IMG/VR virus record: IMGVR_UViG_3300045988_088052
DNA length: 32,960 nucleotides
Source of the DNA: a virus
Direction: 5' to 3' (one strand)
The translations under genes were made by a program, and so were the position numbers. A model generated the notes under the pieces. The model did no database searches. It was not told the DNA's origin and was given only the letters and a program-made list of their open reading frames with translations. Below are positions 12,566 through 32,197 of the stretch, piece by piece. How positions within the stretch are numbered: position 1 is the first letter of the stretch; every line of letters begins with the position of its first letter.

Positions 12566-13114
12566 ATGGAGGAAATGGAGAAAACAACACCAGAGATCAA
12601 GCCAAAGAAGAAAAAAACGATGGTAACAGCAATAATCCTAATTGTTATCATAATTGCAATCATCGGAGCGCTTGCCGGCGGAGAAAAGGATAAAGACAAA
12701 CAAGACAATCAGCAAAATCAGCAGCAACAGCAAGAGGAGCAAAACGCAGAAGTGGATATGTCCGTAGTCGCTTCGGCCATAAAAACTGTGCTTGATAAAA
12801 ATGCGGAGGGCACAGGGATTGAGTACTCTTTAGAATACGATGACACCGGTCTTGTTATAGCAGCAAAAGCGTCAGGAGTAGCTGCAGAAGTGGCGCAAGC
12901 AAAAGCGGACGGATACGACGATACATACGAGCCATGGGTAACAATGCGTGAAAGCATGGTTAAACTGTGCAATTCGATATCTGATGCTGTTGATACGCTT
13001 GGCGCAAAGGATAAATATGTAACAGTCACAGTGGTCAACGATGCCAATGAGGACAACACCCTCTTGACGATTATGAACGGCGTGGTTGTATACGATGTAA
13101 TGGCAGAAAAATAA
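12566..13114 (+). CDS. Type-II membrane / exported protein of unknown function (182 aa)
   Basis: GGAGGAG RBS. The order is a K-rich N-terminus, a transmembrane helix (MVTAIILIVIIIAIIGALAGG), a Q/D/K-rich linker (KDKDKQDNQQNQQQQQEEQ), and a domain of about 110 aa. Confidence 0.65.
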   Translation: MEEMEKTTPEIKPKKKKTMVTAIILIVIIIAIIGALAGGEKDKDKQDNQQNQQQQQEEQNAEVDMSVVASAIKTVLDKNAEGTGIEYSLEYDDTGLVIAAKASGVAAEVAQAKADGYDDTYEPWVTMRESMVKLCNSISDAVDTLGAKDKYVTVTVVNDANEDNTLLTIMNGVVVYDVMAEK

Positions 13115-13120
13115 AAAAAC

Positions 13121-13144
13121 ACCGCCCTCGTTGCCGGGGGCGGT
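13121..13144 (-). terminator. GC-rich hairpin with its U-tract on the minus strand
   Basis: ACCGCCC (13121..13127) pairs with GGGCGGT (13138..13144). The T-run (GTTTTTTTATTTTT) follows only in the minus orientation. Confidence 0.4.
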
Positions 13145-13164
13145 TGTCTATCAGGAGGAGAAAA

Positions 13165-14250
13165 ATGAAAGAAAGGACAAATACGGCAAAGTGGCTTGAG
13201 AAGCAGAACCGCTGGCAGATCGCCGTCCAGAAAGATGGCGTAAGAAAAACATTTACAAGCAGTCGGCCGGGAAGGGAAGGGCAGAGGGAAGCGAACCGAA
13301 AAGCAGATGACTGGCTGGCATCAGGCATCTGCGGGACGAAGCTGCACCTATCGGAGCTGCACGAAAGCTATATGGAGCAGCTTAAAATTCGGACTTCGCA
13401 ATCGAATTGGCGACCGCAGGAAAGCCGCTGGAAAACATGGATTGACCCAAGGATAGGCCACCTAAAGGCAGATGCACTTTGCGATGGGATTTTGCAAAAG
13501 GTTATCGACTATGCATACAATAACGGGAAATTGTCGAAGAAGTATCTGCAAAACATCCGTGCTGACATGGTTTCTTTCTGCAAATATTTGCGGAAAATGA
13601 AAGTAACCGGCTTTACCCCGGAAGACATAACAATTCCAAAGGGAGCCCCCGTTGGCGTTCGCAACATTTTGCAGCCGGAGGACATTGTGACACTTTTCTC
13701 CGTTGATACGACGATCTACAAGGGTAAATTGGTAAAAGACCCATATATAAATGCTTATCGCCTTGAGGTTTTGACCGGACTGCGGCCGGGGGAATTGCGC
13801 GGTATCATGCGAAACGATTTCAAACAAGGCAGATTGGAGGTAAGGCGGTCGATAAACGAGGATAATGAAATCACTACAGGCAAAAACGAAAATGCGATAC
13901 GCAGCGTTTATTTGGGCGAAATCGCAGAAGCGATTGTAAAAGATCAAGCATCCAAGTCAAACGGCCTGTATCTATTCCAAATGCCGACAACAGAAACCTA
14001 TCGCAAGTTTTTCCAAAGATATTGCAACGCAAACGGGATTCCGAAAACGACACCATACGAGCTGCGACACACTTTCGTTTCTCTTGCACAGTCCCTCCCG
14101 GAGGGATGGGTAAAGCAATTGGTCGGACACTCCAAGAGTATGGACACATTCGGGGTTTACGGTCACGCTGTGTCCGGGATGGATCGGCAAATAACCAGCG
14201 CACTTGATGGCGTGTTTACATCAATTCTTGGCCAGCAGGGAAAAAAGTGA
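13165..14250 (+). CDS. int: Tyrosine recombinase / phage integrase
   Basis: C-terminal catalytic motifs are present (GLRPGELRG..., ELRHTFVSLA, LVGHSKSMDTFGVYGH). ATG at 13165 follows GGAGGAG. Confidence 0.92.
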   Translation: MKERTNTAKWLEKQNRWQIAVQKDGVRKTFTSSRPGREGQREANRKADDWLASGICGTKLHLSELHESYMEQLKIRTSQSNWRPQESRWKTWIDPRIGHLKADALCDGILQKVIDYAYNNGKLSKKYLQNIRADMVSFCKYLRKMKVTGFTPEDITIPKGAPVGVRNILQPEDIVTLFSVDTTIYKGKLVKDPYINAYRLEVLTGLRPGELRGIMRNDFKQGRLEVRRSINEDNEITTGKNENAIRSVYLGEIAEAIVKDQASKSNGLYLFQMPTTETYRKFFQRYCNANGIPKTTPYELRHTFVSLAQSLPEGWVKQLVGHSKSMDTFGVYGHAVSGMDRQITSALDGVFTSILGQQGKK

Positions 14251-16326: not shown

Positions 16327-16446
16327 AGATGTTTCCTCCTTTTCTTCGGTTTCTACGCCAAGGGTTTGCAGAGCTGCTTTTAGCTGTTCCAACTCTGCTT
16401 CCTGCTTTGCTTTTACTTCTTTGGCTTTTTCGGTATAATAACCCAT
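16327..16446 (-). CDS. Hypothetical 39-aa coiled-coil peptide
   Basis: Hand translation gives MGYYTEKAKEVKAKQEAELEQLKAALQTLGVETEEKEETSNAG. Overlaps occur at both ends (TAATG upstream; the 3' end overlaps the next ATG). Confidence 0.35.
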
Positions 16447-17735
16447 TAAGTCACCCCCATAATATTAAGAGCATTAAGTGTATCAAGGATATAACTTTCG
16501 CCAGAAAGTGTTTTCCACTGATTTGTAGTTGTATCGTAAATATAAGCATTTGTGAGTTGGGCGATGTTGTTTGAATCTCCGATGTAAGCGTTTCGTAAGT
16601 AGGCTTCAAATTCGGATTTTTGACCTTTTACGACTGTGAATGGATTGTCAAAACCAAAGTCTGCTTGTAGAAATAAATGATTTTGTTGCAAAACAGTCGA
16701 TTGTGTAAATGTTTCTACTGAAGAAACTCCAGAACCACCAAGAAGATAAAATTTATCACCAACAAATCCACAGCAAGCTGATACTCTACTTGCGTGCAAT
16801 TCAGACTCAAGCACGTCAACGGCCAAGTTATCTAAATTTACACGAATTATCTTTTTTTGATACTGAGTAGAATCTATATTTCCAAAGATATATGCATAGC
16901 TACCGATTCTACAGCACCTATTTGCTTGGTTCACCATATAAGGTAGTACATTGTTATTCTGAGTATATTCTTGTGTATCGACATCAAATGTCTGTATAGA
17001 CTTCCGTGGGTCAAATGAGACTCTTGTTGTGCCTCCAAATACATAAACTTTGCTTCCTACTGCAACACAAGCTGCATTATAGGTTCCTTGAGCTTGTACT
17101 GGCATATTTCCATGATAAGTAAATTTTTCTGTTGTTACATCGAAAACTGATACAGTAGCAGAGTTTGTACTTCCAATAAATGAGCCAACAAGAAATATTT
17201 TATTGCCACTAACACAGCCACTTGAAAAATAGTATACTTGCGAACCGGGAAAGGGATAAGAAACATTTCTTAGTGTAGTTTTTTCTCCTGTTTCCAAATC
17301 AAACTTATCTACATACTCGGAATCTGCTCCAACATTATGATTAAAAGTATATATGTATTTGCCAACAGTAAATGCGAGTACATAATATTGGTAAACCAGG
17401 TCTGAATAAAAAGTCGTTTTTTCTCCCGTTGTTACATCATATCTATATATATCATTTTGCTGGCTACCTGTATATGGACAAACAGAATAAATATAATTAC
17501 CGTATGAACACATTTGCGGGTAGTCATTTCTAAGCTGAGAAAAACCAACTGTCCAATTCTTTGTCTCCGTGTATTCATTTCCATAATTCAAAACAGGACT
17601 GCATTTCACGAAGTCTGGCTTACTTACCAACGGAACCCATAGTTTGCTTGTATCTACGGGAGGGGTGGAACCAAAGTCAATGTTCAAATCAGCTCCACCA
17701 CCACCCAATGTAATAGGATTTCCTAAAATACTCAT
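16446..17735 (-). CDS. Receptor-binding tail fibre, Kelch-like beta-propeller (paralog 1)
   Basis: About six blade motifs are visible (KVYVFGGTT, KFYLLGGSG, YAYIFGN, KIFLVGS, YIYTF, YIYSV). The N- and C-termini are shared with paralog 2. The ATG at 17735 gives MSILGNPI, parallel to paralog 2. The ORF track used GTG at 17741. Confidence 0.7.
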   Translation of the reverse strand: MSILGNPITLGGGGADLNIDFGSTPPVDTSKLWVPLVSKPDFVKCSPVLNYGNEYTETKNWTVGFSQLRNDYPQMCSYGNYIYSVCPYTGSQQNDIYRYDVTTGEKTTFYSDLVYQYYVLAFTVGKYIYTFNHNVGADSEYVDKFDLETGEKTTLRNVSYPFPGSQVYYFSSGCVSGNKIFLVGSFIGSTNSATVSVFDVTTEKFTYHGNMPVQAQGTYNAACVAVGSKVYVFGGTTRVSFDPRKSIQTFDVDTQEYTQNNNVLPYMVNQANRCCRIGSYAYIFGNIDSTQYQKKIIRVNLDNLAVDVLESELHASRVSACCGFVGDKFYLLGGSGVSSVETFTQSTVLQQNHLFLQADFGFDNPFTVVKGQKSEFEAYLRNAYIGDSNNIAQLTNAYIYDTTTNQWKTLSGESYILDTLNALNIMGVT

Positions 17736-17759
17736 ATTCACCCTTTCCGGGGTGAGTAT

Positions 17760-19129
17760 TTAGTTCACCCCTAATATATTTAGTGCGTTCTGCATATCCG
17801 CTACATAGCTTTCACCGGAGAGGGATTTCCATTTGAGGTCTTTGCTGTCGTAGAGATATGCGTTTGTTAATTGTGCTATATTGTTACTGTCCCCAAGATA
17901 GGCATTGATTACCTTAACCTTTAAGTCTGTATCTTTGGATTTAAGCGCCGTCCACAGTCCATCGTAGCCATAGTCTTCTTGCAAGAACAGGTGGTTGTTA
18001 GTAAGGGGAGTTTCAACGACAAATTTCGCTGTATATGGAACTTTTGCAACCATATAACTCCCACTTTTCGATGCATTATTAGGAGCGCATATTATATACT
18101 TTGCTTCGTTTATTTTATAAAATAATGCCCATATACTAACTTGCGGAAGAACAGTAGAAAGCTGCGTAAATTGATTTGTAGCTGTGTCAAATTTATAAAT
18201 AGTATTTATTTGCGAATCGGGAATGTCATTATTAAAATCTGTTGAAGAGCCACCAAAACAATAAATGTATCTGCCATAAGATATGCAGGTCATCCCAGCA
18301 ACATTAACAGGATATGTTGTTACAGATACACATGTATCATTTGAAATATCATAAGCATACACACCATTTTTAGGAGAATATTGTTGTGCTCCTCCCATTA
18401 TGTATATCTTCGAACCAACAACACATGTCGTAAACATCTTTCCCGGTATTGGAATTTTTGCATTTGATATCAATGCAGAGTTCGTATTTAAGTCAACTAT
18501 TTTAATTGAGTTGGTTGTGTTAGCGTAAGATATGCGTATTCCACCAAACAGGTACAATTTATTATTGGCGTATTCCATCGCCATATAGTTAATTTCTGAA
18601 GCGCCTAACGAAGAGTCGAAAGGCAGAGAACAAATTTTTTCTGCTGTTTTTGTAGTTAAATTGCTTTTAATTATAGAATTACTATAACCCGTTCCCGAAA
18701 TTGATGTGGAATTTATCGCACAATAAACAATGTTCCCGTGTTGACAAAAAGAATAGCGGCCTGCGTTTGATGAAGACCCATCGTGACCTAAAACAGAATT
18801 CATTGTTACTTGGTCAACAACATTCGTTTCAATATTCAATCTTTTTAATGCTGTACCGGAATACCCCCAATACAAATAATTTTCATACTGAAATGAAGAA
18901 GACCAGCTGCCACGTGCGCTTGCAAATTCATTGCCAGTTCCAATCTCAGAATAATTACTTAAATACTCACTTCCAAATGCCAATTCTGGCTTACACTCAA
19001 CAGCATCAGGCTTTTTCTCCAAAGGCACCCATAGTTTAGTTGTGTCTGTCGGAGGGGTAGAACCGTAATCAATGTTGAGTTTTACCCCCCCCCGTTGGTA
19101 ATTATTGGATTGCCATAGATGATGCTCAT
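17760..19129 (-). pseudogene. Receptor-binding tail fibre, Kelch-like beta-propeller (paralog 2), interrupted by a G9 tract
   Basis: The ATG at 19129 overlaps the upstream stop (ATGA) and encodes MSIIYGNPIITNGGG, then a stop. The rest (VKLNIDYGSTPPTDTTKLWVPLEKKPD..., 17760..19085) is in the -1 frame. One extra G or a -1 slip restores a 455-aa protein colinear with paralog 1. Confidence 0.7.
19085..19093. repeat. Homopolymer G9 (C9 on the plus strand) at the frame break
   Basis: Counted directly: C at 19085..19093. Confidence 0.95.
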
Positions 19130-19998
19130 GCGGTTACCTCCGTTATCGTTACCTGTACCGCCATATCCGCATTGGGCTTTTCGCCCATTGCTTTGGCGGT
19201 AAGGGTACCATTGTTGTTCTCAATCCAAAGGGCAGATGTGCCGCTGTCTATGATAACGCCAAGAGCGGTTGCGTCCATCTGGATATCCACCTTGCTGTTG
19301 GCCGTAGTTCCAAGCCCGCTGATGGTTTGGCTGTACGGACTTTCGGAGCCGAGCCAAGATGCCGCAGGAAGCGAAAGCTGCTTAATAACAACCGCACGGT
19401 TTATCTTGTACTCCATCTTTCCGATGGCCTGCGTTACCGTGTCTGTTGTGGTTACATTCTGCCGGGAGGTTGCCTGCTTGTAGCCGGGGATTTTGATTTG
19501 GCTGCCGGTGTAATCGCCGGTTTGCGGTGTCACCGCTCCGGTGCGGCCGTTAAAGCTCGCAACAGTACCGGGGCTGATGGTGTGCGCTACATACTGCAAA
19601 TCGGAGATCATTGTGGGCTGGGCTGTGTAAGTGGCTATCGGCAGCTGGTACACAGTACCGCTTGCATTGATATCCTCCTGCACAAGTGCCGGAAGCGGAT
19701 CGGCTGCCTGCGTCACAAAAGCAATCGGCGCTTCGGTGTTTGCCATGTCAATTTGGATAAGCAATCTTCCGGGGACGGAACCGCTGGTCGGAAGCGTCGC
19801 ATTGATCGTCTGGGCTTCCACGACAAAGTTTCGGCCGAGGATTATACCACGGCCATCGGAAACATTGATGATGTTACCGCCCTGTGTAGTTACCTCAACG
19901 CCAGTAAAGATCCCGCTGTCGTTGATAATGTGATTGTATAGATACGCATCATCAGTCGGCGTGACGATGGATGCGTTATACTGGAGCAGCGTTATCAT
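19126..19998 (-). CDS. Tail fibre / baseplate-associated protein (290 aa)
   Basis: The call rests on position, between the Tal-like protein and the receptor-binding genes. The protein is Thr/Gly/Ala-rich and looks beta-rich. ATGA coupling occurs at both ends. Confidence 0.5.
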   Translation of the reverse strand: MITLLQYNASIVTPTDDAYLYNHIINDSGIFTGVEVTTQGGNIINVSDGRGIILGRNFVVEAQTINATLPTSGSVPGRLLIQIDMANTEAPIAFVTQAADPLPALVQEDINASGTVYQLPIATYTAQPTMISDLQYVAHTISPGTVASFNGRTGAVTPQTGDYTGSQIKIPGYKQATSRQNVTTTDTVTQAIGKMEYKINRAVVIKQLSLPAASWLGSESPYSQTISGLGTTANSKVDIQMDATALGVIIDSGTSALWIENNNGTLTAKAMGEKPNADMAVQVTITEVTA

Positions 19999-21050
19999 GC
20001 GTTTGCCCTCCTTTCAAGGATCAAAATTTTGGTAAGGTCGGCACGGACAACGCCGAAGGTCATTTTTGTAACATCCTGCGACCTTGCATAGCCGGTAAGG
20101 ATAGATTTGTAACTACTGTCGCCATCAATGACCAAAACCTCTGTGCCGATGGCCATTGAGGTATCAAGTACGCCACAGTCGTTTCGGGCAGTCAGCTCGA
20201 TCATGTTGTCATACTTTTGCGGGCTTAACGCTTCGTAAGCCTTTTTGTATGCAGCAGATTCAAAATTGATATCCGTTTCCAAAAACTGCGCCGCAAAAAA
20301 CACAGGTGTAATTCTGTCCGTGTTGTTTGTGTCGACATTGCCGTTAGGATGTAGATAGTAGGTTATGCGCTGCGTCTCATCGGCCTTGTTGTAGATGGTT
20401 ACCTTGTTCAGCTGGCCTGTGCTGTCGCCGATGATGATGTTTTTGTCAACGATAGCCTGTAGGTTTGTTTCTATGACAGCAGTCTCGCTGACCTTGCCCA
20501 CCTTAACAGAGATTGTCTTTTTCTGCGGGTCAAAGCTCATGTTGACAGCTACGCCATAAGCCGTCAGCGATTTCGTGATGATTTCGTAAAAGCTGTGGAT
20601 GTTGTCCTTTAGATTGAGCGCCCCGGTCGTTTCGGAGGTCGTTTCCACCGTCATACCGGATATGTTTTGCAAAGCATCTCCAGAAGAAACAAAGTTATCT
20701 CGGATGATTGAAGCAATAAAAGGCTCGATCTTTGCAGAGGTCGTGCGATCGAAATATACCTCGGTGTCAAAAAGCGACATAAGAGGCTGCGCCGAAATCG
20801 TTACGCCCGTTTTATCTGTTTCCACATCGTCAACGATTCCCTGATAAGCTACATTCCCGTTTTGGTCTGTAACGCTTATAAAGTCGCCCTTTTTTGCATC
20901 CAGCTTTACAGCCCGGAGAGTAGTTTTTTCTACGGTCAGGTAGTCAAACTGTATCTCCGGGCTTTCAATCGGAGCAAAACTTCGGAATGTGAAATCCCTT
21001 GCGAATACTTCGCACTTAAACAGAGTATGCAAGTTTCTCCACCTCCACAT
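19995..21050 (-). CDS. Tail-tip (Tal-position) protein, siphovirus Gp37-like
   Basis: The 351-aa gene lies directly after Dit. The call rests on position and general resemblance. An alternative TTG start is at 21035. Confidence 0.5.
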   Translation of the reverse strand: MWRWRNLHTLFKCEVFARDFTFRSFAPIESPEIQFDYLTVEKTTLRAVKLDAKKGDFISVTDQNGNVAYQGIVDDVETDKTGVTISAQPLMSLFDTEVYFDRTTSAKIEPFIASIIRDNFVSSGDALQNISGMTVETTSETTGALNLKDNIHSFYEIITKSLTAYGVAVNMSFDPQKKTISVKVGKVSETAVIETNLQAIVDKNIIIGDSTGQLNKVTIYNKADETQRITYYLHPNGNVDTNNTDRITPVFFAAQFLETDINFESAAYKKAYEALSPQKYDNMIELTARNDCGVLDTSMAIGTEVLVIDGDSSYKSILTGYARSQDVTKMTFGVVRADLTKILILERRANA

Positions 21051-21837
21051 ATGCTACGATATCCGATGTGCCGTCGTGCGAAAATGTCAAAGTGCTTTCT
21101 CCCGGCGGAGCATAGATAAATCTTCCGGTCGAAAAGTCGCTGGACTGGTACAGGTTTTGGATGTATGTCCCGTCGAGCGCATACTCTGCGATCTCCATTG
21201 TTGCAGGGTCAGCATCAACAACGAGTTTGTGTCCGTCAGGGATTGTTGCGGTTACTTTTCCGACCGCTACACGGGTACCGGCCTTGATAAGCGCCCAAGC
21301 AGGATTGACGACCGGGCCGAAGATTTGCAGTTTGCACGGTGATGCCAAATCCCCGTTTCTTATTTTTGCAGTTCCTGTTGCTGTTTCTGCGTAGTAATAA
21401 GGATAAGTGTAACTGTACCTTTTAATTCCTTGGTCTGGCGCTTGACTTTGTGTTACCTTAACAGCTTCGTGCCAAGTCCCGAAGCAGAGGAATGTAATCG
21501 GTACTGCCAAATAGCCGGATTTCAGTTCCGACTTATCCGCAGACTGCACTTCACACTTGATTTTGTACCATGTGTCCAGCGGGGAATACATCAGGTAAAG
21601 CGGGCCTTTTGTCACGAACGAAATAAACGCCTGATACCGGGAATAGTCGAAGAATATCATTTCGCCTGTCACGGCATACTGGTTAAGGAATTCATCCGAT
21701 ACCAGCCATGCGCTTCCGGCTTGGATGGTGGAGTAGGTTTTGCCAAAGCCTAATCCACCTGGCGCATTGAAGTACGCCGTTTTGTCCATCAAATCCCATT
21801 CGGCGCCGACACCGTTCTTGAGCTTAAATTTTCTCAT
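21016..21837 (-). CDS. Distal tail protein (Dit)
   Basis: The 273-aa gene follows the tape measure directly with an ATGA overlap, which is the typical position and size. Confidence 0.65.
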   Translation of the reverse strand: MRKFKLKNGVGAEWDLMDKTAYFNAPGGLGFGKTYSTIQAGSAWLVSDEFLNQYAVTGEMIFFDYSRYQAFISFVTKGPLYLMYSPLDTWYKIKCEVQSADKSELKSGYLAVPITFLCFGTWHEAVKVTQSQAPDQGIKRYSYTYPYYYAETATGTAKIRNGDLASPCKLQIFGPVVNPAWALIKAGTRVAVGKVTATIPDGHKLVVDADPATMEIAEYALDGTYIQNLYQSSDFSTGRFIYAPPGESTLTFSHDGTSDIVAYVEVEKLAYSV

Positions 21838-24203
21838 CAGTAAGCCCTCCCAAGCGCACGGTTGACCGCCTGTACCAAGTTCCTTGCGGCAGCTTCACCG
21901 GCTGCGTTATCGTAGCCGTTAAATGTGTTGTTCATTTCGATGGTGATGCCGCCACGGTCGTTTCCGTTCAGTGGCATAACATGGGCACGGCCACCGGCCA
22001 TGGTAAGCAGCTCCGGCCCGGCTTCGCCGACGATGGCGCTGCCGGAGGACAAAACTCCGCCCTTGGCAAGATAAGCAATTTTTCCGATGGTCGGAATATT
22101 AAATCCGAGGGACTTACCGCCCAAAACAGGAACCCAATCCGGAACATCAAAGTGAATGCTGTTAAGGCCGTTTATCATCCAGTTAATGGCGTCAATAACC
22201 ATGTTGATAAGGCCGATGATTCCATTAAGAGGAGCCTTTGCAATCGCCACAAGGGCTGTAAAGATGCCCTTAAAGATTTCCTGAACACCTGTCCATGCTC
22301 TTTCCCAGTCCCCCGTGAATACGCCACGAATAAAATCGATAATACCGTCAAAAACGGCCTTTATGGAATCCCAAACGGATTTTACTGTTGCGAAGAAGAA
22401 ATTTAAGATTTCCCCCAATACTCCAAACGATTCCGACCAATCCGTCGTAAATACGCCCTGTAAGAAATCATCCACACGCTGGAGGATGGCCTGTATCTCG
22501 TCTCCACTTGTTGCAATCCAAGCAACAAGTCCTACAATGGCAGCTATGAGAAGCACGATAGGATTTGCGATTATGAAATTTATGGCCGTTATCAGCGCCG
22601 GGATAACCGTTCCAGTTATAAAACTGATGGCTCCGGCAATTCCCGAAATAATGCCTGCAATCGGGGAAATCGCCGCAATAAGACCGCCGACAATAAGGAT
22701 CGTCTTTTTGACCCCATCGTCTAGGTTTGAAAACCAACCGATTGCATTTTGAAGCCCTGCGACGATTTTATTGATAATCGGCAGCAGGATATCACCGATA
22801 GAGATTGCCAAGTTATTGAGCCCGTTTCGGAGGATTTTCATCTGGCTTTCGGTCGTAGCGTATCTCTTGGACGCTTCTTCCGATAGTGCTGTGTTTTCCT
22901 CCCATGCAGTATTTGCGGTTGTAACAGCATCGTCCAATACATTGGACGCAAGGGCTAACGCACGGAGCATATTTGACTGGCGAATCCCGGAGAGCCCCAA
23001 TTCATCCAATACGGAGATTGTGTCCTCTCCATTTTCGTTCATCTTCCCAAGCCCGCCGATGAAAGCACTGATTGCGTCTATCGGTTCATTGCCCCACATA
23101 TCTGCGAATTCAGAAGCAGATACACCAGCGATCTTTGCGAATGTTTCAAGATCATCACCGCCGGCAGACACAGCCTTGCTTATTGCGGTCATTGTTTGGG
23201 TCATTGCCGTACCGCCTGCCTCTGCGTTGATGCCAACAGAGGACATTGCGGTGGACAATGCAAGGATATCCTGTTCGGACAACCCGGCAACTGTACCAGC
23301 AGACGCAAGGCGTGTAGCCATCTCAACAATATCGCGCTCTGTTGTGGCAAAGTTATTGCCAAGGTCAACGATGGTACTGCCGAGTTTGGAGTATTCATCA
23401 GCGGTCGTTCCGGTAATGTTGGCAAATTTGGCAAGTGCAGAGGCAGCTTCATCAGCGGAAAGGTTGGTTGCTTCGCCCAAGTCGATCATAACGCGGGTAA
23501 AGTCAAGTACATCATCGGTGGCAATACCCAACTGTCCAGCAGCTTCCGCAACCGCCGCAATCTCCGTAGTGGACGCAGGAATTTCTTCTGCCATGTCCAA
23601 TATGCCCTGCCGGAGTGCCGCAAGCTGCTCTGTAGTGCCGTCTACTGTTTTTTCAACGCCAGCAAAGGCGCTTTCAAATTCTACAGCCGCTTTTGTGGCT
23701 GCCACTCCTGCTCCTGCAAAGGCCAAAGATGCCGGTGCAAACTTCTTTGCAATGGTCCCGGACTTTTCTGCTATTTCGCCGGTAACCGCTGAAACCTGTG
23801 CAAGTGCCGCACGGCTCCTGGACGCTTCGGCCTGTAGGTCTTTCAGCTTTAGTTCGGCGCTGGTCAGTTCCCGGACTAACTCACGGTATTGTTTTTGGTT
23901 GATCTCCGTGCCGTCCGCCATTTCCTGATCCGCTTTCTTTTTGGCGTTTCGGAGGCTTTCAACCTTGTTTTCTGTATTTTTGATTTGTTCCCCGAGCAAT
24001 TGCTCCTTTTGTTTGAGCAGGTCAATATTAGTCGGGTCGAGTTTCAGCAGGCGATTGACTTTATTAAGCTCCGATTGTGTCCCACGGATTTCGCTGTTCA
24101 GCGAGCTGATCGCTTTCGACAATCCCTTTGTATCGCCGCCGATTTCAACAACGATGCCTTTAACATTTTCAGCCAATCTTACCACCTCCTGCAAAGAAAT
24201 CAC
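21837..24203 (-). CDS. Tape measure protein
   Basis: The 788-aa protein has an N-terminal coiled coil, a central Ala/Gly-rich helical region and hydrophobic helices (ILIVGGLIAAISPIAGIISGIAGAI). The likely start is TTG at 24176, 8 nt after AGGAGG. Confidence 0.9.
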   Translation of the reverse strand: MISLQEVVRLAENVKGIVVEIGGDTKGLSKAISSLNSEIRGTQSELNKVNRLLKLDPTNIDLLKQKEQLLGEQIKNTENKVESLRNAKKKADQEMADGTEINQKQYRELVRELTSAELKLKDLQAEASRSRAALAQVSAVTGEIAEKSGTIAKKFAPASLAFAGAGVAATKAAVEFESAFAGVEKTVDGTTEQLAALRQGILDMAEEIPASTTEIAAVAEAAGQLGIATDDVLDFTRVMIDLGEATNLSADEAASALAKFANITGTTADEYSKLGSTIVDLGNNFATTERDIVEMATRLASAGTVAGLSEQDILALSTAMSSVGINAEAGGTAMTQTMTAISKAVSAGGDDLETFAKIAGVSASEFADMWGNEPIDAISAFIGGLGKMNENGEDTISVLDELGLSGIRQSNMLRALALASNVLDDAVTTANTAWEENTALSEEASKRYATTESQMKILRNGLNNLAISIGDILLPIINKIVAGLQNAIGWFSNLDDGVKKTILIVGGLIAAISPIAGIISGIAGAISFITGTVIPALITAINFIIANPIVLLIAAIVGLVAWIATSGDEIQAILQRVDDFLQGVFTTDWSESFGVLGEILNFFFATVKSVWDSIKAVFDGIIDFIRGVFTGDWERAWTGVQEIFKGIFTALVAIAKAPLNGIIGLINMVIDAINWMINGLNSIHFDVPDWVPVLGGKSLGFNIPTIGKIAYLAKGGVLSSGSAIVGEAGPELLTMAGGRAHVMPLNGNDRGGITIEMNNTFNGYDNAAGEAAARNLVQAVNRALGRAY

Positions 24204-24716
24204 GCAAGCCGCCGGGTCTGCCCCTTATGGCATACTGTTCTGCATCATTGGCCTTTTCGATCATCAGATCGTAGACCATTCCGCAGGTCATGTCCTCCAG
24301 CGCTTCGTCGGATAACCCGAGTTCAGCGCAGCGGAGCATAAAGGTTGACCCGGTGGGCTCACGCACGGTTTGTTTTATTTTTTTTTTGGAACAGCGGTAG
24401 TCTTGTTGTTGAGGCTCCAAAGCTCCAAAATGGCAGGCAGCACTTTGTAGATGGAAAACATCTCAAACTGCTCCAGCCACTCGTCAACATTGTCTGGGAT
24501 AGACCCGTCATATTGCCGAGCCATGATAAAAGCGACATCCTCAAAGATTTCAAGATCGCTTACGGAAAAAGAACCGTCCTCGGATGTCGCTGCCGTTTGT
24601 AGCTTTTGCAGGTCACGGACAATGTCCCGCCCCACCTTATGGCGGTAAATGCGGGGGGTCAGCGCATTAGCGCACAACCCTACGCTTTTTCCGTCGATCT
24701 CGATTACTTTGTTCAT
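24169..24716 (-). CDS. Tail assembly chaperone -1 frameshift product (GT-like)
   Basis: ORF 24169..24420 is in the -1 frame relative to 24375..24716. The two share the slippery run CCAAAAAAAAAATAA. Confidence 0.6.
24375..24716 (-). CDS. Tail assembly chaperone (G-like)
   Basis: The gene lies between the major tail protein and the tape measure. ATG at 24716 is 5 nt after GGAGG. The protein ends VPKKK-stop inside an A10 run. Confidence 0.7.
   Translation of the reverse strand: MNKVIEIDGKSVGLCANALTPRIYRHKVGRDIVRDLQKLQTAATSEDGSFSVSDLEIFEDVAFIMARQYDGSIPDNVDEWLEQFEMFSIYKVLPAILELWSLNNKTTAVPKKK
24378..24387 (-). promoter_or_regulatory. A10 slippery sequence for the -1 programmed frameshift
   Basis: T10 on the plus strand at 24378..24387. 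The zero frame reads CCA AAA AAA AAA TAA. Confidence 0.6.
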
Positions 24717-26558: not shown

Positions 26559-28244
26559 TTAGGAAGCCTTGGTTACATTGACGGTGTAAACAACAGTCTC
26601 GTTACCGTTCTTTACAGTGACGGTCAGAGGATGGGCAGTACCATCGGCCAGCCAGGTAACAGTGCCGCCGTTCTTCACATTGGCGTTGTTGTAGGCAATA
26701 GCGACCTGCGCACCGGCAACCTCGGTAGTGGCGTTTACTGCAGCAGTCGCAGCGGAAGCGGTAGCGGTGTAGCTCAGCACATCGCCATCAAAAGCAGGGC
26801 TGAGGGACAGGTTTCCAACGGTCAGAGCGGACAGCTTGGCGTTGTTGGCGGTATCAGCCGCAAAGGTCATGGAGGTGGTTACGGAAGCGCCGTTAATGTT
26901 GATCGCCACAAAAGCGCCGGGGATAACGGGCATACCGTCAGCGCGCTCTTTGCCGCGGAATACGGTGTTGTCCTGAATGAACTGAACCTCGCGGGATGCT
27001 TCGATAGTCATGCCGGAGCGCTGCGCCCACAGGTACAGGTCGCCATAGCCGCCAACGATGTCGCCATCGGGGATAAATTCGAGGATTTCCACATCACCGC
27101 CGATGATGGGCATGGTCATACCGTCAAAGGTGACATACCGGCCCAAAGCGGTAGCAAGGATTGCCTTGGACTGCAGAGTAGCCAGGGTCTTGCTATTCAT
27201 AGCCCAGAAGCGCTCGCCGCGGGAATAGCGGGTGAAGGTGTTACCAGCAGCAACAGCCAGCGCAGCCCAGAAAGCCTCGCCGGTAGAAGCGGTGGGAATG
27301 GTGATGATGTTGGAGGTATGCAGGTCAACCCAAGCAGGAGCATTGGCCGGGTAATCGCTAGGCTTGCTCTCCTGTGCCAGACGGGTCACGATACCGAGAG
27401 GCATCTTCTGACCAGCGCCCTTACCGTACAGGATGGCCTTATCCTTGGCAAGGCCGATAGCCTCGGACAGCATCTCGACGATCCAGGAAGCAAGGTTTAC
27501 ATCGTTATCCTCCAGCAGGGAGTTACAAACAGGAACATAACCGGCAACCTTGAAACCGTCGAGGGTGATCTGGTTAAAGCTGAAGGTCAGCTCATTGATA
27601 GCGCCACACATTTCAGTCCAAACGGCCTCGGGGACAGTACCGGCAATGGTCTGACGGGCTTCGCCATTGACATTGCGGATGCGGACACGACGCATCAGCT
27701 TGGAGTAGCGATACATATTCTCGGCAATGAGCTCGAGGAATACAACAGGGATGGTCAGCTCGCCACCGGTGATATCTCTCTTGCTGTGGGCAGCGTTACG
27801 CAGCTCCGCAAAGAAGGTCTGCACATCGGGCTGGGCTACGATAGCGTCACGCTGCTCCTTGGGGAGAGCGTCAAAGGCGCGTACATTCATAGGGAGGGAG
27901 CGAATGTTGATGGTATTCATAGTAAAATCATTCCTTTCGTCTTTCTTTTTGGGTTCGTGGTCAGCTTTTGGTGGATCTTTTTCAGCGTTTTCCAAATCCT
28001 CCTCAAGGCCCTTAATTTCTGCGGACAGCTTTTCCTTTTCGGCGTTGTGGGCATCCTGATCCTCGGTAAATTGGTTCATTGCATCCTCAACTGCCTGCTG
28101 CTCCTCTTCGGTAGTGGCTTCGCCAATAGCCTTTTCGATTTCAGCGGAGCGGGTTGCAAATTCGGCGTCCTTGGCGATCAGCGCATCAAAAGCGGCCCTT
28201 TTCAGTTCCAGCTTTTTGGCGATCATGATGGATTTCAGTGCCAT
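26559..28244 (-). CDS. HK97-type major capsid protein with C-terminal cadherin/Ig-like beta-sandwich domain
   Basis: An N-terminal coiled-coil delta-like region (aa 1-105) is followed by an HK97-fold core ending about aa 450. A C-terminal extension of about 104 aa begins LSALTVGNLSLSPAFDGDVLSYTATA. Confidence 0.88.
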   Translation of the reverse strand: MALKSIMIAKKLELKRAAFDALIAKDAEFATRSAEIEKAIGEATTEEEQQAVEDAMNQFTEDQDAHNAEKEKLSAEIKGLEEDLENAEKDPPKADHEPKKKDERNDFTMNTINIRSLPMNVRAFDALPKEQRDAIVAQPDVQTFFAELRNAAHSKRDITGGELTIPVVFLELIAENMYRYSKLMRRVRIRNVNGEARQTIAGTVPEAVWTEMCGAINELTFSFNQITLDGFKVAGYVPVCNSLLEDNDVNLASWIVEMLSEAIGLAKDKAILYGKGAGQKMPLGIVTRLAQESKPSDYPANAPAWVDLHTSNIITIPTASTGEAFWAALAVAAGNTFTRYSRGERFWAMNSKTLATLQSKAILATALGRYVTFDGMTMPIIGGDVEILEFIPDGDIVGGYGDLYLWAQRSGMTIEASREVQFIQDNTVFRGKERADGMPVIPGAFVAININGASVTTSMTFAADTANNAKLSALTVGNLSLSPAFDGDVLSYTATASAATAAVNATTEVAGAQVAIAYNNANVKNGGTVTWLADGTAHPLTVTVKNGNETVVYTVNVTKAS

Positions 28245-32100: not shown

Positions 32101-32197
32101 GGCTTCCCCTTTCTCAAAAATATACCGTAGAGTTGGAAAAAGTTCCCCCCGCCGGTCCCCATAGACAGGCGGAAGGCGCAACGGATAGGGGGGGGTA

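Follow-up and report, generated by a model that had tools for sequence, protein, structure and literature searches.

A poly-G tract of variable length at the start of a Kelch-type tail gene in a human-gut siphophage: a candidate contingency switch

The Kelch-A locus and its interrupted reading frame

The IMG/VR virus record IMGVR_UViG_3300045988_088052 comprises 32,960 nucleotides of DNA, and this whole stretch, referred to below as the window, carries on its minus strand the structural module of a siphophage. The module includes two genes for Kelch-type proteins, here termed Kelch-A and Kelch-B, and the coding sequence of Kelch-A is broken near its 5' end at a run of nine G residues (G9). We interpret this run as a probable hypermutable tract, the length of which would decide whether Kelch-A is in frame (ON) or out of frame (OFF). 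The features on which the analysis turns are the following.

19082..19129, minus strand: OFF-state mini-open reading frame, ATG, MSIIYGNPIITNGGG, TAA, with ATGA at 19129..19126 (from the sequence)
19085..19093, minus strand: poly-G tract (G9), codons 13-15 of Kelch-A, in an OFF phase (read directly from the sequence)
17760..19085, minus strand: Kelch-A body in the -1 frame, 441 codons and a stop, with conserved N- and C-terminal modules on either side of a six-bladed Kelch propeller (from translation, Pfam, an AlphaFold (AF2) model and Foldseek/PDB matches)
16446..17735, minus strand: Kelch-B, the paralog, not switchable (from Pfam and the sequence)

The start codon of Kelch-A (ATG, 19129..19127, minus strand) overlaps the TGA stop (19128..19126) of an upstream open reading frame (ORF) of 290 amino acids, and the minus strand at this point reads ...GGAGGTAACCGC ATG AGC ATC ATC TAT GGC AAT CCA ATA ATT ACC AAC GGG GGG GGG TAA AAC... 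Translation in the 0 frame ends at the TAA at 19084..19082 (minus strand), the run itself being exactly nine residues long and lying at 19093..19085. From the GTA at 19085 (minus strand), the -1 frame is open without interruption for 441 codons, up to a stop at 17762..17760. The original prediction, made from the letters of the window, had described a coupled ATG at 19129 followed by a short peptide and a TAA, and coordinates and translation agree with it. It had also placed a 422-codon body in the -1 frame immediately after the run, and this holds as well, the figure of 422 being counted, like the 422-amino-acid ORF of the mechanical list, from the first GTG, at 19028.

Addition of a single G (G10) restores MSIIYGNPIITNGGGVKLNIDYG..., as had been proposed, with GGG-VKLNIDYGSTPP as the peptide across the tract junction, and the frame is restored equally by G7 or G13. 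The restored product is 456 amino acids long and matches PF24681 with 68.5 bits against a cut-off of 50, Kelch_1, Kelch_2 and Kelch_6 likewise scoring above their cut-offs. Re-initiation at the GTG at 19028 was considered as a route by which the OFF gene might be expressed and was rejected, as this codon lacks a Shine-Dalgarno sequence and a protein started there would be without the conserved N-terminal module. A promoter and terminator scan gave nothing above shuffled controls. The G9 is the only run of at least nine G or C residues in the window, and approximately 0.2-0.25 such runs would be expected by chance; a single G9 is therefore not significant on its own, and it is the conservation of the run in relatives that counts.

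An AF2 model of Kelch-A built from 86 homologues reached a predicted local distance difference test score (pLDDT) above 90 over approximately residues 80-370, which form the propeller, with low confidence in the first ~55 and the last ~80 residues. The glycine tract sits at the extreme 5' end of the gene, in a low-confidence glycine linker which would tolerate changes in length. Foldseek returned the six-bladed Kelch domains of LZTR1 and KLHDC2 as best matches (E ~1e-17 to 1e-14), and further fold matches were to 'virion structural proteins' of jumbo phages and to Kelch entries of the PDB. Among 86 family members, the N-terminal module (~50 amino acids) and the C-terminal module (~90 amino acids) are nearly invariant and the propeller core drops to 35-45% identity; conserved ends thus enclose a variable core, as one would expect of a host-recognition module that can be exchanged. 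Gene position, modular architecture and fold together suggest that Kelch-A is a putative alternative receptor-binding protein, and no homologue of it was found among receptor-binding proteins of solved structure or of cultured phages.

Kelch-B, which begins with MSILGNPITLGGGGADLNIDFGSTPP, has the homologous four glycines encoded by GGT GGT GGT GGA (17705..17694), as anticipated by the original prediction, which held that the paralog writes the same glycine stretch in non-slippery codons. Mixed codons occupy this position in all 38 related loci in which it was compared (GGT GGT GGT GGA, GGT GGC GGT GGA, GGT GGA GGC GGA and others), and a homopolymer was never found there. The tract glycines of Kelch-A are encoded by GGG only, a codon that makes up 16% of the glycine codons in the structural genes of this phage, and synonymous sites beside the tract do vary (TAT/TAC, GGC/GGT/GGA, ATA/ATT/ATC). 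Interrupted Kelch-A tracts are rare (L020/L026, L021, L023/L042 and L069). Judged by this codon usage, the homopolymer in Kelch-A appears to be maintained.

Tract length and coding integrity among related loci

Viral, genome and metagenome collections were scanned for the conserved codons that follow the run, the run itself not being required, and 77 loci with a recognisable start codon were obtained, representing 72 unique contexts. A G run was present at the same position in 76 of the 77, the exception being a more distant locus (L075). Across the 72 unique contexts the lengths were G7 (4 contexts), G8 (8), G9 (30), G10 (16), G11 (9), G12 (1), G13 (3) and G20 (1), so that in the comparison of the same locus in related phages, as the original prediction had advised, the tract proved to be conserved while its length ranged from G7 to G20, with ON and OFF lengths both common. 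By phase, 24 contexts were in frame and 48 were OFF, 18 of the latter in one OFF phase and 30 in that of the G9 type, a distribution which could not be distinguished from uniform (chi-square, p=0.22).

Length also differs between sequences that are otherwise nearly or wholly the same. The loci fall into ~50 allele groups, 12 of which have several members, and in nine of these 12 the tract length is not uniform within the group. Eleven sequences belong to the window's own allele (at least 99.2% identity over the 1300 nucleotides downstream), with lengths of G7, 7, 8, 8, 9, 9, 9, 9, 10, 10 and 11, and three sequences 100% identical to the window (G9) over those 1300 nucleotides have G9, G10 and G11. 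The tract thus changes faster than the sequence on its flanks. The exact 422-amino-acid body of the window turned up again in 10 other independent assemblies, the run being G9 in eight of them and G12 in two. A search with the restored protein retrieved an intact 456-amino-acid form from other samples (P0001), which differs at 2 residues and the DNA of which (L003) has G10 and a body 99.85% identical to that of the window over 1300 nucleotides. Another entry, P0005, is a truncated call; in its DNA (L004) the run is G12 and the upstream context is not that of the window. The 90% cluster of the restored protein contains forms of 455, 456 and 457 amino acids together with truncated gene calls of 407, 420 and 422 amino acids; by sequence the 456- and 457-amino-acid forms read NGGGV and NGGGGV, and the 455-amino-acid form presumably reads NGGV. 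These cluster listings also held unrelated proteins (Amidase_2 endolysins in the Kelch cluster, 107-amino-acid holins in the endolysin cluster), and from them only the protein lengths of unambiguous Kelch members were taken. Contig breaks at the tract were discarded as evidence of heterogeneity, as most locus ends were artefactual and only one, in L046, was a true contig end, lying inside the tract.

In alleles reading TAT GGG AAT CCA ATT ATT (L009, L033 and others), a +1-frame ATG lies within TAT GGG and is in frame with the body at G8 or G11, and gene callers report this start as a 451-amino-acid protein, MGIQLLPTGGVKLN... (P0121). In the window's allele (CCA ATA ATT; 19100..19117) the +1 frame is closed by a TAA.

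The coding sequence behind OFF tracts is mostly intact. An open body of 407-441 codons was found in 26 of 31 OFF loci, most of the exceptions being due to locus ends; the premature stops in the remaining five were mostly locus ends or chimeric sequence, and real lesions were confined to L051, which has a second frameshift, and to L034/L038, which are interrupted. Between pairs of OFF alleles, the ratio of nonsynonymous to synonymous substitution rates (dN/dS) was 0.12-0.45. Intact bodies together with these ratios indicate that OFF alleles are under purifying selection. A dead pseudogene is thus disfavoured, given the uninterrupted 441 codons of the window body, the dN/dS values and the existence of a near-identical intact version; a uniform G9 followed by decayed codons, the outcome which the original prediction had named as pointing to such a pseudogene, is not what the relatives display, since lengths vary and bodies are intact.

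A second homopolymer of the same phage served as a control for the counting of such runs.

24375..24387, minus strand: A10 followed by TAA at the end of a 124-amino-acid tail-chaperone ORF upstream of the tape measure gene, the run occupying 24378..24387 (from the sequence)

Past the A10, the -1 frame stays open up to the start of the tape measure gene, and from its sequence and position the site has every appearance of a canonical tail-chaperone programmed -1 frameshift site of the G/GT type. The A10 was invariant in the window and in all 21 of the related loci that cover it (22 copies). It follows that homopolymer counts in these assemblies are reproducible at ten bases, and that a site which is truly programmed does not drift in length. 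Within 691 kb of related sequence, G runs of at least eight residues were limited to the Kelch-A tract (74 occurrences) and one G8 in the window, which lies at 32188..32195 on the plus strand, near the small-terminase end.

A contingency tract weighed against other explanations

We put at roughly three in four the probability that the G9 is a DNA-level hypermutable poly-G contingency tract of Kelch-A, which the window happens to present in its commonest OFF state. Slipped-strand mispairing during DNA replication would add or remove G residues, either while the prophage is copied by its host or in lytic replication. At G7, G10 and G13, translation would then run through to the end of the gene and place 2, 3 or 4 glycines in a flexible linker, and at G8, G9, G11 and G12 it would stop after 15-19 codons. 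As Kelch-B is without a tract, OFF phages would presumably still build a working tail tip, carrying a different set of adhesins. The near-random phase would fit late genes of a prophage, which would go unselected during host replication and be exposed to selection only at transmission. We infer that switching would be rapid and reversible within one population, and that it would change host range as a form of bet-hedging. Of the three readings offered by the original prediction, ON/OFF heterogeneity is thereby the one favoured, in the form of a polymorphism between samples: lengths run from G7 to G20, copies of the same allele differ and OFF alleles are under purifying selection.

Several considerations weigh against this interpretation. 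All of the evidence is drawn from differences between one assembled consensus sequence and another. The in-frame fraction is not above chance and gives no sign of selection for ON, in a set of populations that are mostly probably prophages. The OFF length G9 is strongly modal (42%), and this mode could arise from mutational bias or could be a hint that G9 is decoded by slippage. A mutational bias in tract length is known for the poly-G tracts of Campylobacter. The A10 control is imperfect, as poly-G and poly-A can differ in their sequencing error profiles. The receptor-binding role, finally, is drawn from gene position, modular architecture and fold, in a protein that no cultured phage carries.

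A different view of the same break is that it is programmed, a -1 ribosomal slip on G_GGG_GGG at the stop, or stuttering of RNA polymerase, yielding Kelch-A at a set low ratio. We consider this improbable. It would account for G9 being by far the commonest length (30 of 72), for the 0-frame stop directly after the run and for the fit of G_GGG_GGG to the X_XXY_YYZ pattern; an 8-bp stem (ACUCAACA/UGUUGAGU) begins 4 nucleotides past the run (fold z=-1.97), and the same phage has a homopolymer-plus-stop site in its tail-chaperone gene, the A10-TAA. However, neither length nor phase is conserved at the Kelch-A tract, all three phases occurring within single alleles, including G8/G11, which would require a +1 shift, and the in-frame G7/G10/G13, whereas the genuine programmed site keeps its A10 in 21 of 21 related loci. 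Nor is the stem a constant companion of the run: its 3' arm, which is the part that was compared across lineages, the 5' arm being fixed by the search pattern, is down to 4-7 of 8 pairs in other lineages regardless of tract state, and the arm codes for a conserved VEC motif. RNA fold z-scores were marginal (-1.97 and -1.55), no Rfam element was found, and the 0-frame product would be just a 15-amino-acid peptide with no evident role. Programmed slippage at a fixed ratio, a further reading of the original prediction, is accordingly not supported as the main mechanism, as length and phase are unconserved and neither a conserved stimulatory structure nor an Rfam element was found; low-level leaky slippage on runs of G9-G13 may occur. 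At the RNA level, a 9-bp hairpin (19035..19093, minus strand) can also arise between the G run and a downstream UACCCCUCC (STPP codons), so that the slippery run itself is part of the hairpin. This pairing of the G run with CCCCUCC was examined as a possible frameshift stimulator and judged to be probably no more than a consequence of coding for the conserved STPP, although an influence on slippage or on translation is conceivable.

Two further accounts would remove the switch altogether. One is a sequencing or assembly error, the true length being G10 or G7 and the homopolymer miscounted, and this we regard as very unlikely. Homopolymers are classic error sites, an intact G10 version exists with a body 99.85% identical over 1300 nucleotides (L003/P0001), and one contig (L046) ends inside the tract; against this, G9 together with the identical 422-amino-acid body occurs in eight other independent assemblies from different studies and assemblers, the spread of G7-G13 plus one G20 goes far past a miscount of plus or minus one, and the A10 in those contigs never departs from ten. 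The recurrence of G9 and the constancy of A10 thus speak against the assembly error that the original prediction had listed among its readings. The other account, to which we likewise give little credence, is that of a non-adaptive hotspot in a dispensable or decaying gene, where the poly-G is an inherited coding accident and OFF means loss of function without any switch. Such a gene would be expected to show the random in-frame fraction that is found, the second Kelch gene could make Kelch-A dispensable, and a few loci do carry extra lesions (L051; L034, L038). Yet OFF bodies are intact, with dN/dS of 0.12-0.45, and the tract persists in ~50 allele groups although one synonymous change would lock it; the paralog uses mixed codons only, interruptions of the Kelch-A tract are rare, and the position of the tract, at the extreme 5' end and in a length-tolerant linker, is typical of a contingency tract.

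A fuller version of the contingency-tract interpretation is put forward tentatively, as a possibility rather than as our expectation: a selected poly-G tract may toggle one of two Kelch tail adhesins, with much of the switching taking place in the prophage and so diversifying virion tropism in advance, and with G9 partly read through to give a graded output.

The phage, related systems and significance

The minus strand of the window encodes TerL, a portal protein, an HK97-type capsid protein, a tape measure protein, Dit, tail proteins, the two Kelch proteins and lysis proteins. The genes leading to Kelch-A are the following.

24203..21837, minus strand: tape measure protein (Pfam PhageMin_Tail)
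21837..21016, minus strand: distal tail protein Dit (Pfam Dit_N)
21050..19995, minus strand: tail protein phrog_7064 (PHROGs)
19126..19998, minus strand: 290-amino-acid distal-tail protein, translationally coupled to Kelch-A (phmmer to PDB chain 30yz_W, 'receptor-binding protein', weak, E=4.5e-6)

Kelch-A lies between the genes for Dit, Tal and receptor-binding-protein-like products and the lysis cassette, with a CBM5/12 protein, a holin-like protein and an Amidase_3 endolysin encoded downstream of Kelch-B. The original prediction had called the upstream partner a fibre gene: its coupling to Kelch-A was borne out, and the fibre label was not, as the 290-amino-acid protein has no Pfam domain and only the weak match to a receptor-binding protein given above. 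A public Third Party Annotation (TPA) record labels this protein 'Receptor Binding Protein sandwich domain'.

By exact-protein look-ups, the proteins of the window recur on hundreds of human-gut contigs, and the distal tail protein is found on >400 public contigs. Relatives are integrated prophages, in which the lysis genes are followed by an integrase, a helix-turn-helix (HTH) repressor and then host genes, and TerL is closest to that of phages of Bacillota. From its gene content and these matches, we take the phage to be a prevalent, uncultured, temperate siphophage of human-gut Bacillota. A megablast of the tail region against 50,697 GenBank phages gave no match, and tblastn of the restored protein against cultured phages returned only a weak Kelch match in a Pseudomonas jumbo phage, so that no cultured phage with the protein was found. 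A genome scan for the host yielded only a contig of an Absicoccus metagenome-assembled genome (MAG) and a Helicobacter pylori contig, probably a contaminant; exact-protein look-ups gave only the labels 'Caudoviricetes sp.' or H. pylori, and the prophage flanks in relatives (Na/Ala symporter, ABC transporter) held no taxonomic information. The H. pylori contig (L042; NZ_JAHXLB010000019.1, 'Helicobacter pylori strain SHZY19 contig_19', 23.6 kb) carries the tail genes of this phage, and the phage Dit protein has consequently been named as an H. pylori protein (WP_231176005.1). Most likely the contig is a contamination of that assembly and does not point to the true host.

The two Kelch genes (16446..19129) have a GC content of ~37-41% against ~48-55% for the rest of the phage, an indication that they came in by horizontal transfer, as a cassette. 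The distal-tail region is mosaic among relatives that share the Dit of the window (L084-L093), where one of three alternative cassettes follows the gene for the 290/291-amino-acid receptor-binding-protein-like product: Kelch-A (with poly-G) and Kelch-B; four small genes and a DUF6273 protein; or DUF6273 with genes of 174 and 345 amino acids. Among these three, a G or C run of at least seven residues occurs in the Kelch-A cassette only.

After the lysis genes, on the opposite strand, a 368-amino-acid ORF without a Pfam match (13144..14250, plus strand) stands in place of the 361-amino-acid Phage_integrase of relatives, and is accompanied by a 182-amino-acid ORF (12566..13114, plus strand). In some integrated relatives (L085, L093), proteins of 425 and 444 amino acids, again without a Pfam match, adjoin host DNA. 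The 368-amino-acid ORF and these counterparts may represent a recombinase of a kind not recognised as such. The HK97-type major capsid protein (26559..28244, minus strand) has a C-terminal Cadherin-like beta-sandwich domain (PF12733, residues 478-559), which may be a fused decoration or adhesion domain, and a tRNA-Thr (TGT) gene lies at one contig end (667..741, minus strand).

The closest known counterpart is found in the Fletchervirus phages of Campylobacter, in which tracts of 7-11 G in receptor-binding protein genes give phase-variable expression (Sorensen 2021, Cell Rep 35:109214, via PMC10579305, PMC10877375 and bioRxiv 10.1101/2025.10.21.683753). Both systems have an intragenic run of ~7-11 G in a tail or receptor-binding gene, the length of which toggles the frame and would produce subpopulations with different adhesins, the toggled adhesins being putative in the present case, and in both, receptor-binding-type genes stand side by side with tracts in some of them only. 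In contrast, Kelch-A is no relative of the Fletchervirus proteins, being a Kelch propeller flanked by conserved N- and C-terminal modules of its own, and the carrier is an integrase-carrying temperate siphophage of gut Bacillota, whereas Fletchervirus phages are lytic myophages of a Gram-negative host. There is also a single tract per genome here, and switching would probably take place in the prophage too, during host replication.

More broadly, simple-sequence contingency loci of bacteria and phages (surface genes of Campylobacter, Neisseria and Haemophilus; T2 and T4, for which such loci have been described in bioRxiv 10.1101/2025.10.21.683753) share with Kelch-A a homopolymer near the 5' end, toggling of the frame by slipped-strand mispairing (the proposed mechanism in Kelch-A), polymorphism among near-identical genomes and an ORF preserved while OFF. 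In coliphages, infection proteins, tail fibres among them, have fewer homopolymers of at least six bases than expected (bioRxiv 10.1101/2025.10.21.683753); here, unlike in that pattern, the tract is specifically retained in a tail gene. Tail-chaperone -1 frameshifting, as in lambda G/GT, and transcriptional slippage also involve a homopolymer followed by a stop, with a -1 shift giving the longer product, but programmed sites have a fixed length (A10 here), in contrast to the G7-G20 of Kelch-A and its 15-residue 0-frame peptide. With the invertible G segment of Mu/P1 and the diversity-generating retroelement of Bordetella BPP-1, the Kelch-A tract would share a heritable, stochastic diversification of host recognition. 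The mechanism differs, being a change of frame through repeat length, and no invertase, inverted repeats, reverse transcriptase or template repeat was seen near the Kelch-A locus.

Beta-propellers are also known from receptor-binding proteins of Gram-positive siphophages, namely the platform domain of phi11/80alpha and Brochothrix NF5 (PMC4901313, PMC7048315, PMC12917162). As in those phages, the propeller of Kelch-A would be located at the periphery of a siphophage tail tip, its gene lying downstream of Dit and Tal. The propellers of phi11/80alpha/NF5 are five-bladed and come with coiled-coil stems and tower domains, whereas that of Kelch-A is of the Kelch type and six-bladed by its closest structural matches, and no sequence or fold match between them was detectable.

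Literature searches turned up no description of a comparable tract, either from phages of gut Bacillota or from tail proteins of the Kelch type, and a 2025 long-read study of the gut lists poly-G tracts only as a hypothetical contributor to host range (PMC12823448). The mechanism is already known; what is new is an apparently widespread case that involves another, unrelated protein family, another type of phage and another group of hosts. It has a practical side, in that gene callers truncate or miss Kelch-A in approximately two thirds of assemblies, and a tail gene that looks 'frameshifted' at a G run should be neither corrected nor thrown out as an error. While the principle itself is not new, the case is clean, prevalent and experimentally tractable, and the tract offers locked-ON and locked-OFF variants as a handle on the receptor and host of this phage group. 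The host-range determinants of uncultured gut phages are largely unknown, and the locus provides a concrete example from outside Campylobacter of a putative switchable adhesin gene, paired with a constitutive paralog.

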